Below the pieces are notes generated by a model. It saw only the letters and a program-made list of their open reading frames with translations, was not told the origin of the DNA and made no database searches. Shown here piece after piece: positions 45,014 to 47,998 of a stretch of 64,000 bases of DNA. Source of the stretch: Candidatus Iainarchaeum sp. (GTDB lineage Archaea; Iainarchaeota; Iainarchaeia; Iainarchaeales; JAFCCW01); assembly GCA_017609985.1 (NCBI GenBank), contig JAFCCW010000013.1, forward strand, positions 25,520-89,519. The letters run 5' to 3'. Position 1 is the stretch's first letter, and every line of letters starts with the position of its first letter. The position numbers and the translations under genes are program-made.

Positions 45014-47998
45014 TTAATTCGACTCTGTTTTTTCAAGCAAACTTTCTTTCAGTTTCAATCCAATTACTGAACTCTTTTCTTTGTTGAGCGCTACTCCAAT
45101 TATCTGGTCAGCAGAATTAATCAAGTGGTCGTTGTGAGTTATTGCAATAAACTGGGAATCGGAAGACACTTTTTCAATTATTTCAATCATTTTTCTGCTG
45201 TTCTCTGCGTCAAGTGCAGCGTCTGCCTCGTCAAAGACATAGAATGGCGCAGGGTCATACAACTGTATCGCGAAAAGAAATGAGAGAGCAGTAAGGCTTT
45301 TTTCTCCGCCGCTCATGGAGTCAATATTTTGCAGGCTTTCCTTGTGTTTTGCTTGGATTATCAGGCCTGAGTCAAGAGGATTTTCTTCATCGCTTAATGA
45401 AAGCTGTCCAGAACCCTTGAAGAGTGACATAAACAAATCACTGAAATTTTTGTTGATTTCATTAAAGCAGTCAATGAAAACAGTTGTTCTTTTGACATCA
45501 ATTTTTTCAATCATATCAATAACAGCAGTTCTTTCTTCTTCAAGCTTTTTAACTTTTTCTTTAACATCATCTACTTCTTTTTTAAGGTCTGAAAAGCTTT
45601 CAACTGCCTTCATGTTGACTGCTCCAATTTCCTCAATTCTTTTTTCAATTTTTGGAATTCTCTCCCTTAGTTCTCCGACAGAGTATTCTTCAAGTATTTT
45701 TTCGCCGACAAATTCTTTTGCTTCTTCTCCCAAGTCATCAATTCTGACCTGGTTTTTTCCAAGTTCAATGTTAATCTCGTTTTCTCTCTGGTCTGTTTTA
45801 TGAATTTTCTCGCTCACAGACCCTATTTTTTGCTGAAGAGTCTCAATTGATGTCTCAAGTTCTTTCTTTCTTTCCACAAGCTTTTTGCCCTCGCTTTCCT
45901 GCTGTTCTTGTTTTTTTTCAAGACTGGTTATTTCTTCGACAAGACTTTTTTCCCGATTCTCCATTTCAGTTGTTTCTGATTCAATTTCTTTTGACTCTTC
46001 TTTAATGGACTTTATTTCCGAGACATTTCTTTTTCTCTCAGCTGAAATTCTTGTTTCTCCTGAAATTTCCGAGTTCTTGAATTCTTGTTCGAGCAGTGCT
46101 TTTTCTTCCCTTAACTCTGAGAGCTCTGAATTAATTTTTTCAATGGAATCAAAACCAAGTTCTTCTCTTAGTTGTCTAGCGTTTGAAAAAAGTGTTTCTC
46201 TTTCACTCTTTAGCTCTGATATTTTTTCTTCCACTCTTTTTACTTCTATGGCTAAATTATCAAGTTCTTCGCTTTCCTGTTCGCCTTTAATTTTTTCAGC
46301 TTCGGATTCAAGTTCAGCAATTGACTCTCTGGTTTCCTTCAATGGTTCAATCTCAATTTCTAATCTTCTTTTTTCTTCAAGCATTTTTTTAAGGCTAGAG
46401 TGTGCTTCTTCAAGACTATTAAGCTCTTGTCTGGTGCTTTCAAGTTCTGTTTCTCTTTTTGTAATGTCTTCTTGTTTTTTGGCGAGCAGGCTTTCTTTTC
46501 TTTTTTGCTCAAGCTTGCTTTCACAAACAGGGCATTCTGCAACAGCCTTCTCCAGTTCTGCTTCTGCTTTTTTCATTGAAGCTATTTCTGCTTCAATATT
46601 TTTCAAATCAGACATTTTTTCCCCTGATTTTTCTTCAGATTCTAATATTTCTGTTTCAATTGAAGAGTGCTCTTTAATTATTTTTGTGAATCTGGCTTCT
46701 TTTTCTGAAAGAGTTTCTTCTCTGACTCTAAGCTTTCCAAGCTTTGCAGAAATCTGAACAAGCCTGTTTTTTCCTGTCTCAATTTTCTGATAAATAGTTG
46801 ATATCTTTGCCTTATTTTCTAAAAGTTCTGATGAAAGCTTGGAAATTTTTGAATCAGCTTTTTCAGCATCTGCTCTCATGCTAGTTTCTTTGGCGAGAAG
46901 ACCTGAATCCTTTTTCACAAGCTCGCTTTTCTTTTCAGCAAGCTCTTTTGTTTTCAGGTCAATTTCGGGAATTCTCTTCTCAATTTCATCTCTTCTTTCT
47001 GAGAGAGCCTGAATTTCTTCTTCGAGATTTTGGTTTCTCTGATTTAACAGTCTTAATCTTGAACTGTTTTTTGCAAGCAATTCCTGTTTTGCTCTTTTTT
47101 TTTCTTCAAGAACATTCTTTTCTGTTCTAGCTTGTTCAAGTTTTGTTCCGACTTCTTCGTACAATGATTGTCCTGAAGAAATTATCTCGGAATCAATTGC
47201 CTGCATTTTACTTTTTTTCTCGCCTATTTTTCCCGAAATTTCTGAAATTCTTTTCTTAAGTTCATCTCTTCTTGAACCAAGTTCTTCAAGCTTTTTTTCA
47301 GACTCGTCATTTTCTTTTCTTATTCTGCGGATTTCTTTTTCAAGAAGAGTTGCTTTGAATTCTCTTTTTTGCTTTTTAAGATTGTCATACTCCATTGCAG
47401 CATTCTTTTCCTTCTCAAGCTCTGAAAGATATGTTTCTCTTTCTGAGAGAACGATGTTTGCTTCCCTTGTTTTCTGTTCAACCTTTGAAAGTTCTTTGAG
47501 TGCTTCAGCTTTTTTTTCGTCAAACTCGCGTAATCCTGCAATCTCATCAATTACTTCTCTTCTTTGAACAGGATTCATTTCAATAACTCTGGTAATATCC
47601 CCTTGCACTACTATGTTGTGGCCGTGCGGTTTTATTCCTAATTCTGTGAGAAGAGCAGACACTTCATTAAGTGTCTTCTTTGTTCCGTTCAGTCTGAACT
47701 GGCTTCTTCCCTGTTTGTCAATTGTCCTGCTTATCTCAAACTTGTTCTGCTTGTTTTTGAGATGCAATGCAACCTTTGCATAGTTTTCAACGCTCTTGCT
47801 GTTAACAAGGTCAGTTAGCTTTGAAGCTCTCAGCATTTTCAGGGAAGTAGCTCCCATGACAAACATTAGTGCGTCAAGGATATTGCTCTTTCCAGAACCA
47901 TTGCTTCCTGCAATAACTGTGAATCCGTTTGAGAGTGGAATTTCTGCTTTGCGGAAGCTCTTGAAGTTTTTTATCTCAAGCTTCTTCAAGTCAACCAT
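45014..47998 (-). CDS. smc: SMC-family chromosome segregation ATPase lacking a hinge, with central CxxC zinc-hook-like motif
   Basis: 994 aa. Walker A is [14 protein letters not shown], followed by [34 protein letters not shown]. The signature motif plus Walker B is [36 protein letters not shown], then QFIAITHN. The middle is continuous coiled-coil-like sequence, with [10 protein letters not shown] at aa 489-492. Confidence 0.85.
   Translation of the reverse strand: [994 protein letters not shown]

Follow-up and report, generated by a model that had tools for sequence, protein, structure and literature searches.

The window analyzed here is a 64-kb stretch of DNA from Candidatus Iainarchaeum sp. 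(contig JAFCCW010000013.1), in whose numbering all gene positions are given, and the gene of interest, at 45014..47998 on the minus strand, is a complete gene for a hinge-less SMC protein of 994 amino acids (aa) with a putative hook at its apex, as read from the list of open reading frames (ORFs), a Pfam SMC_N match over aa 4-975 and an NCBIfam SMC_prok_A score of 570 bits. Its reading frame is uninterrupted and ends in a stop codon at 45014-45016. The N-terminal half of the ATPase head (aa 1-170; 47489..47998, minus strand) carries the Walker A motif GSNGSGKS (aa 31-38, nt 47885-47908), R57 and the Q-loop IVVQGD with Q132, and the C-terminal half (aa 831-994; 45017..45508, minus strand) the signature MSGGEK (aa 895-900; SGGE at nt 45302-45313), the Walker B/D-loop region (aa 919-930; FYVFDE at nt 45227-45244) and the H-loop ITHN with H955; both halves were delimited by motifs in the translation, by invariant columns and by alignment to the Pyrococcus Smc head (5xei). 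In an alignment of 78 homologs with about 40% identity, K37, R57, Q132, S896, G897, G898, E899, D923, E924, D926 and H955 are all invariant, as are residues of the conserved SMC neck motif in the N-terminal arm.

Two coiled-coil arms connect the head halves to the apex, one N-terminal (aa 171-482; 46553..47488, minus strand), delimited by AlphaFold2 secondary structure, alignment to the Pyrococcus Smc neck and joint and the invariant neck residues, and one C-terminal (aa 498-830; 45509..46507, minus strand), delimited by AlphaFold2 and by alignment to the post-hinge arms of SMC1A and Smc3 and to TIGR02168. From aa 171 to 830 the composition is 21% Glu, 14% Lys, 10% Leu and 2.9% Gly. The apex segment (aa 467-503; 46490..46600, minus strand), defined by MAFFT alignment, profile matches and a fragment model, stands in place of the ~170-aa hinge of canonical SMCs and contains the sequence CPVC at aa 489-492 (46523..46534, minus strand), a putative zinc-coordinating cysteine pair according to the translation and its conservation in homologs. 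The original prediction, made from the DNA alone, had located this motif at the protein midpoint, exactly as the translation reads. The whole protein has three cysteines only, at positions 489, 492 and 844.

The hinge is normally counted as a defining feature of SMC proteins, and functions in binding DNA and in opening the ring have been attributed to it as well. The Pfam hinge model SMC_hinge (PF06470) has no match in the 994-aa protein, even at E<=1, and the SMC_N match runs across the region at 5.6e-43. The same hinge model matches divergent DPANN SMCs (Micrarchaeota, Aenigmatarchaeota and others) at E=1e-30 to 1e-38, which makes the negative result informative. When the protein is aligned by MAFFT with eight hinge-bearing SMCs, big gaps fall over the hinge (residues ~492-661 of the hinge-bearing SMC L020) with only query residues ~467-503 opposite, and full-length eukaryotic SMC chains found by phmmer in the PDB align along the N-terminal arm up to ~aa 432 and along the C-terminal arm from ~aa 441-507 onwards; likewise, TIGR02168 positions 677-1170 align to query residues 501-973. 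The protein is ~180 aa below the canonical SMC length (1160-1190 aa), a shortfall that is mostly hinge, plus a few short arm gaps in the MAFFT alignment. It had been proposed that the protein has no globular hinge in its middle and is roughly one hinge domain short, and the empty profile search with its positive controls and the alignment gap agree on both counts.

The segment found instead of the hinge is strongly conserved. A CPxC motif lies at the midpoint in 115 of the 120 best database homologs (39-45% identity, mostly 985-1025 aa) and is present in 31 of the 42 clusters into which the family falls at 50% identity; its variants among family members are CPVC (74), CPTC (28), CPIC (22), CPLC (3) and CPFC (1). 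Between aa 188 and 754 the 78-sequence alignment has no invariant columns besides C489, P490 and C492. A profile of the apex (aa 440-545, 28 members) searched against the PDB matched the Pyrococcus furiosus Rad50 zinc hook (1L8D, E=2.9e-10; 6ZFF, E=7e-10) and the human RAD50 hook (5GOX, E=1.5e-3), and all 28 members tested match Pfam Rad50_zn_hook (PF04423; best E 1.9e-7). Because coiled coils inflate profile scores, controls were run: the real apex scores 43.7 bits against P. furiosus Rad50, versus 5.3±5.5 bits (maximum 25) when the flanks are shuffled with CPVC fixed, the real score being reached in 0 of 1000 shuffles, and 18.4±5.2 bits (maximum 28.3) when the flanks are rotated by whole heptads so as to keep the register. 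These control scores indicate ~25 bits of position-specific similarity beyond the motif and the heptad register, and this similarity to Rad50 hooks reaches ~45 aa on each side of CPxC. A model of the apex fragment is a helical hairpin with a 7-residue loop (predicted local distance difference test score, pLDDT, 90.6). A conserved basic stretch follows the motif (consensus CPVC[DE]SxLxxxKKxxLxxKK), for which a role as substitute for the DNA contacts of the hinge can be speculated. Judged by its sequence, the apex thus resembles the zinc hook of Rad50, as had been supposed, and is conserved, both cysteines included.

The heads tell a different story from the apex, since they are of SMC type and not of Rad50, RecN or ASRP type. 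Among NCBIfam models, SMC_prok_A (TIGR02169) scores 570 bits (569.8) and SMC_prok_B 449, as opposed to 140 for the best Rad50 model (139.6; cutoff 700), 124 for ASRP (NF045487, 124.3 bits against a cutoff of 300, with the C-terminal head only matched), 57 for RecN and 59 for RecF. A phmmer search of the PDB gives 3e-98 for the Pyrococcus Smc head-joint, with the conserved neck motif inside the alignment, and 3e-18 for Rad50. Foldseek with the full-length model places Smc4, the P. yayanosii Smc head-joint and the P. furiosus Smc head (template-modeling (TM) score to target 0.69-0.89) all above Rad50. Head trees, described below, agree with these assignments, so that the earlier description of the heads as SMC-worded holds with every quoted motif in place, and the heads fall among archaeal SMCs rather than within Rad50. 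The SMC_prok_A score does not reach the equivalog cutoff of TIGR02169 (729.4), a shortfall of the kind that a missing hinge would give, and this sub-cutoff score is probably the reason why NCBI records of the homologs are named 'AAA family ATPase'.

More than 120 proteins, drawn from independent assemblies (NCBI, JGI, ENA and Logan), share this architecture; most come from metagenome-assembled genomes of Iainarchaeota ("Diapherotrites"), and contigs of 0.6-1.2 Mb and the complete Iainarchaeum genome CP064981.1 are among the sources. When 1.84 billion cluster representatives were searched exhaustively with HMMER, a clean score break appeared, with 42 clusters (50% identity) at 441-757 bits and canonical hinge-bearing SMCs from 433 bits downwards. 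This recurrence bears directly on the possibility that the hinge was lost through an assembly deletion or a chimeric contig: no point in support of such an artefact was found, and against it stand more than 120 proteins whose arm lengths are alike within a few residues, contigs longer than 1 Mb, a complete genome and the uninterrupted reading frame of the window gene. The architecture is therefore not an assembly artefact, a deletion being ruled out by more than 100 independent assemblies, the complete genome among them, and we give this explanation a vanishingly small probability.

A few members of the family are atypical. P0371 (1548 aa), P0390 (1781 aa) and L041 (1358 aa) are overlong and possibly represent fusions or gene-call run-ons; in P0371, CPTC lies at aa 1032 with the usual 405-aa spacing of the C-terminal arm, and its N-terminal extension is therefore ~540 aa. 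One contig labeled 'Candidatus Falkowbacteria bacterium' (L015, JAFCBY010000019.1), i.e., of the Candidate Phyla Radiation, encodes a typical archaeal hook-SMC of 993 aa and is probably mis-binned.

An AlphaFold2 model of the whole protein, built on the 78 homologs (mean pLDDT 78.5), predicts near-continuous helical arms, with two long helices turning at a short loop (aa 483-497), helix breaks at 201-206 paired with 764-797 that correspond to the head-proximal joint, and elbow-like breaks at 362-368 paired with 613-615; the protein also aligns to the Pyrococcus head-joint construct 5xei in the PDB phmmer search. The arms are near canonical Smc length, at ~320-340 residues each. Across the family the first cysteine occupies aa 487-491 in most members, and in nearly all of them 404-405 aa separate the second cysteine from the signature motif, despite an arm identity of only ~25-30%. 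Three short forms (790-812 aa) lack 90-107 residues symmetrically from each arm, as expected of an antiparallel coiled coil.

The origin of this gene was addressed by phylogeny and gene position. In head trees (neighbor-joining, 341 head columns, bootstrap) the hingeless clade is recovered at 96.5-100% and lies, with 93% support, inside a group that also holds Micrarchaeota and L020-like hinge-bearing SMCs, itself placed among archaeal SMCs. When representatives from the exhaustive search are included, the hinge-motif proteins P0387 (1012 aa) and P0390 (1781 aa) fall at the base of the clade. Nesting within DPANN SMCs together with the basal position of hinge-bearing relatives shows that the hook is a derived replacement within a DPANN SMC and not a relic. 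The original prediction had offered two alternatives, a natural hinge-less SMC dimerizing through zinc or an SMC/Rad50 intermediate lineage: the first stands as to its architecture, its zinc-mediated dimerization being still an inference, and the second is rejected on the head phylogeny.

The genomic context leads to the same conclusion. A block encoding FtsZ, Spt5, L11, L1, L10 and L12 (36779..41814, plus strand; Pfam) flanks the gene and recurs in the related contigs L001, L003 and L005, and the order FtsZ-(SecE)-Spt5-L11-L1-L10-L12 / Lon_C membrane protein / SMC is common to the window and these three contigs. The convergent neighbor (42545..44947, plus strand; Pfam) encodes a membrane protein of 800 aa that combines a Lon_C (S16) protease domain with a coiled-coil/SHOCT-like tail, and a gene for such a protein (~800 aa) directly adjoins the hook-SMC gene in four of four contigs, the other copies being at L001:13100-15490, L003:13059-15455 and L005:12989-15385. 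At locus L087, the hinge-bearing L020-like smc gene P0256 has the same downstream orientation relative to L12-L10-L1, with a shorter Lon_C gene beside it and an exosome-SBDS-proteasome-alpha block ~6-10 kb upstream; in the window the latter block lies at 56.7-60.3 kb and is inverted relative to smc. This shared neighborhood supports positional orthology of the hook-SMC gene with a hinge-bearing smc. The Lon_C neighbor is a synteny marker, for which no functional link is claimed.

Local differences in gene order also occur. In the window a Diphthami_syn_2 gene (diphthamide-synthase-type ATP-binding; 48231-48932, minus strand) is placed between the SMC gene and a membrane-protein gene that directly abuts the SMC gene in related contigs.

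In the structure of the Rad50 hook, two CxxC pairs from two chains hold one zinc ion. Taken together, the data make it likely that the window carries a resident, vertically inherited smc gene of an Iainarchaeota-type (DPANN) archaeon, in which the ~170-aa hinge was swapped for a ~35-aa Rad50-like zinc hook and the heads, neck, joint and full arms of SMC were retained, giving a zinc-bridged condensin, and the headline of the original prediction, an SMC-type ATPase with a Rad50-style hook for a hinge, survives the examination of hinge, heads, cysteines and assembly. By analogy with Rad50, one Zn2+ held by four cysteines (C489 and C492 of each chain) would join two protomers at the tips of their arms, whose two ~320-340-residue antiparallel coiled coils would then co-align, and the ABC heads, with all catalytic motifs intact, would engage and disengage with ATP. 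The dimer would act on chromosomal DNA as a prokaryotic condensin does, being the lineage's own condensin, and a kleisin (ScpA), its gene lying in another part of the genome, would probably close it. The apex itself may have been acquired by recombination with a rad50 gene. The tight conservation of arm length would fit the reported dependence of Smc function on arm length, which must be tuned (PMC5344682).

Several points weigh against this interpretation. Zinc binding and dimerization are inferred rather than demonstrated. The trees are neighbor-joining and not maximum likelihood, and the sister group of the clade is unstable (hook plus L020-like 63-73%, hook plus Micrarchaeota 35%); L020, which appeared as sister in the first tree, was dropped from that role with denser sampling, and the claim is limited to the 93% nesting and the basal P0387 and P0390. 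Although Foldseek ranks 1L8D first among PDB structures for the apex fragment (TM 0.81-0.85, i.e., ~0.8), the match has E=0.09 and was rejected as independent proof of a hook, helical hairpins being too generic. Nine of the 42 clusters have neither hinge nor cysteine pair (905-949 aa) and are nested in the hook clade, which indicates that the cysteines are dispensable in some lineages, and genes for ScpA and ScpB were found neither in the window nor within ±10 kb of 19 related loci by searches with hidden Markov models (HMMs) built from genes adjoining canonical smc loci, nor did any other partner come to light there.

The hookless proteins (P0102, P0103, P0114, P0116, P0117, P0363, P0364, P0368, P0372, P0377, P0379, P0380, P0383, P0389 and L017:9992-12781) show no obvious apex motif and apparently occupy more than one position in the neighbor-joining trees, a pattern that suggests secondary loss of the cysteines with shortening by ~60 aa. 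A second hingeless, cysteine-free trio (P0270, P0277 and P0286, 915-932 aa) branches inside the L020-like hinge-bearing clade with 92% bootstrap. Hinge loss thus appears to have occurred at least twice among DPANN, whose SMC apex is an unusually labile element in this part of the group, and some lineages may do without an apex junction. Both sets of proteins, together with the marine actinobacterial hinge-less SMC variants, which are explicitly without CXXC (Sussfeld et al. 2025, PMC12153180), would be expected if CPxC formed a turn in the structure of the tip, or an element of it that is intramolecular or redox-sensitive, with apex dimerization absent or provided by the coiled coil itself. 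Such a role is improbable in our estimation, given that the C, P and C positions never vary even as the nearby arm falls to ~25-30% identity, that the similarity to characterized Rad50 hooks is position-specific over ~45 aa on each side, and that, following the logic of 1L8D, two cysteines of one chain cannot complete a tetrahedral zinc site. A labile apex also keeps alive the alternative of a non-classical mode of action, other than that of a ring condensin.

The latter alternative is that of a neo-functionalized SMC-like protein, acting independently of kleisin as a hook-joined DNA tether or as a repair or compartment factor in the manner of Rad50 or ClsN/Sph (ASRP), which may either exist alongside the canonical functions of SMC and Rad50 or have taken them over. 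Outside this family, a zinc hook is typically found in coiled-coil ABC ATPases that work without kleisin, Rad50, ASRP/ClsN and LmuB being examples (PMC9389158; PMC10586767), the score of 570 bits is below the SMC equivalog cutoff of 729, the NCBI name is only 'AAA family ATPase', and no scpA gene lies beside the hook-SMC gene, unlike in 46 canonical loci (from Aenigmatarchaeota, haloarchaea, Methanosarcinales and Melainabacteria), where scpA is immediately downstream of smc, often followed by scpB. The last point is, however, weak evidence of absence: hinge-bearing Micrarchaeota, L086 and L087 likewise have no adjacent scpA, and a Micrarchaeota genome is reported to carry scpA-scpB away from smc (Jeon et al., PMC7055376 Table 2). 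The heads, neck motif, joint and arm length are moreover SMC-like and far from Rad50 and ASRP, the clade is nested among hinge-bearing DPANN SMCs and shares their chromosomal neighborhood, and no nuclease gene is linked in L001, L003, L005 or among the window ORFs tested. We therefore regard a neo-functionalized protein as unlikely and a condensin role as the better account.

The search for partners otherwise gave the following picture. Pfam identified no ScpA, ScpB or Mre11 among 20 otherwise unassigned window ORFs, and no member of the Mre11/metallophosphatase family beside the gene in L001, L003 and L005 or among the tested window ORFs, in agreement with the earlier observation that neither Mre11 nor ScpA/ScpB is encoded next to it. 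When the ScpA profile was run against a database of 5.8 billion proteins, the 120 best matches listed all appeared to be of Aenigmatarchaeota type, as were all those bearing a source name. A conserved winged-helix protein of 275-300 aa, with an N-terminal winged helix-turn-helix (wHTH) domain, adjoins L44e ~2 kb from the hook-SMC gene in 15 related loci (L007:7220-8056(-), L018:7729-8631(-), L001:6861-7685(-) and 12 further loci); it was considered as a substitute for kleisin or kite and dropped, as Pfam and PDB searches return only a generic wHTH and it is absent from the window.

Among the other SMCs surveyed, those of Aenigmatarchaeota type are only 807-846 aa long (L024, L027, L033, L034, L036, L038, L039, L045, L048 and L071; e.g., L033:9989-12457). 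The full hinge is kept in the three tested with Pfam (L024, L033 and L045; E about 1e-32 to 1e-38), so that their arms are about half of canonical length. At most of these loci scpA is directly downstream, in several followed by scpB, and they look like a natural 'mini-Smc'.

Elsewhere in the window, L11 (38773-39630, plus strand) is 285 aa long, with a highly acidic C-terminal extension of ~125-150 aa past its last Pfam domain (relatives have 153-157 aa), and L10 (P0; 40400-41464, plus strand) has 354 aa with a long K/E-rich tail. Two further genes unlinked to the SMC gene encode a 395-aa PD-(D/E)XK nuclease-family protein with similarity to DUF2800/DUF7376 (15132-16319, plus strand) and a small Fic/DOC-domain protein (32946-33332, minus strand).

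Compared with known systems, the protein shares with canonical Smc of Smc-ScpAB (TIGR02169) the ABC head motifs, the neck motif, the joint and arms of ~320-340 residues, a distance from the second cysteine to the signature (404 aa) close to that between hinge end and signature, and a place within DPANN Smc in the neighborhood of a hinge-bearing relative; it differs in having a CPxC hook for a hinge, in being ~180 aa shorter, in its sub-cutoff TIGR02169 score and in the lack of an adjacent scpA. With the hook of Rad50/SbcC it has in common an antiparallel coiled coil tipped by CPxC and flanks that match the P. furiosus hook position by position, whereas its heads are those of SMC, no Mre11 is linked and the hook reads CPxC[DE]S instead of the CPVCGR of P. 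furiosus. Rad50 proteins carry zinc hooks (PMC10586767), and so, at their apex, do the ASRPs (ClsN/coalescin, Sph1/2), a set of coiled-coil ABC ATPases from archaea (PMC9389158), which are, in contrast, ~600 aa long and a family apart from SMC, as opposed to the SMC-proper heads of the 994-aa protein, with its 124 bits against the ASRP cutoff of 300. The hinge-less SMCs of marine actinobacteria are bacterial and have no CXXC, while here a conserved hook replaces the hinge. The identical domain architecture is found in Smc(Zh), in which B. subtilis Smc was engineered to carry the hook of P. furiosus Rad50 for a hinge and which is described as a functional chimera (Burmann et al. 2017, PMC5344682); experiments swapping hook and hinge are reported to show that the two are interchangeable dimerization modules (Tatebe et al. 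2020, PMC6969161). Those are, however, laboratory constructs, and what is described here is a natural, conserved and diversified lineage. Full-text literature searches, in which subscription journals are thinly covered, returned no description of a natural hook-bearing SMC; as far as these searches show, it is apparently new, and the hook-for-hinge arrangement is otherwise known, as first supposed, only from engineered chimeras.

These results suggest that evolution has made its own swap of hinge for hook and kept it across a phylum-level clade of ~40 clusters at 50% identity. With arm lengths constant to a few residues, symmetric short-arm derivatives and secondary losses of the hook, the family allows the need for a hinge to be tested on natural proteins and supplies natural data on the constraint on arm length, and as a small, cysteine-poor and hinge-free SMC the protein could lend itself to biochemistry. 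The family also reveals a gap in annotation, as surveys of DPANN SMCs could miscount proteins that score below cutoff and are named 'AAA family ATPase'. A bolder interpretation, fairly unlikely on present evidence, is that a whole archaeal lineage would rely for its chromosome on an SMC that gained its apex from rad50 by recombination. If so, the later losses of the cysteine pair and the independent hingeless group in a sister clade would show that natural SMC function needs neither a hinge nor any covalent-like apex junction, possibly even without kleisin, and the roles proposed for the hinge in binding and loading DNA would not extend to all SMC motors.

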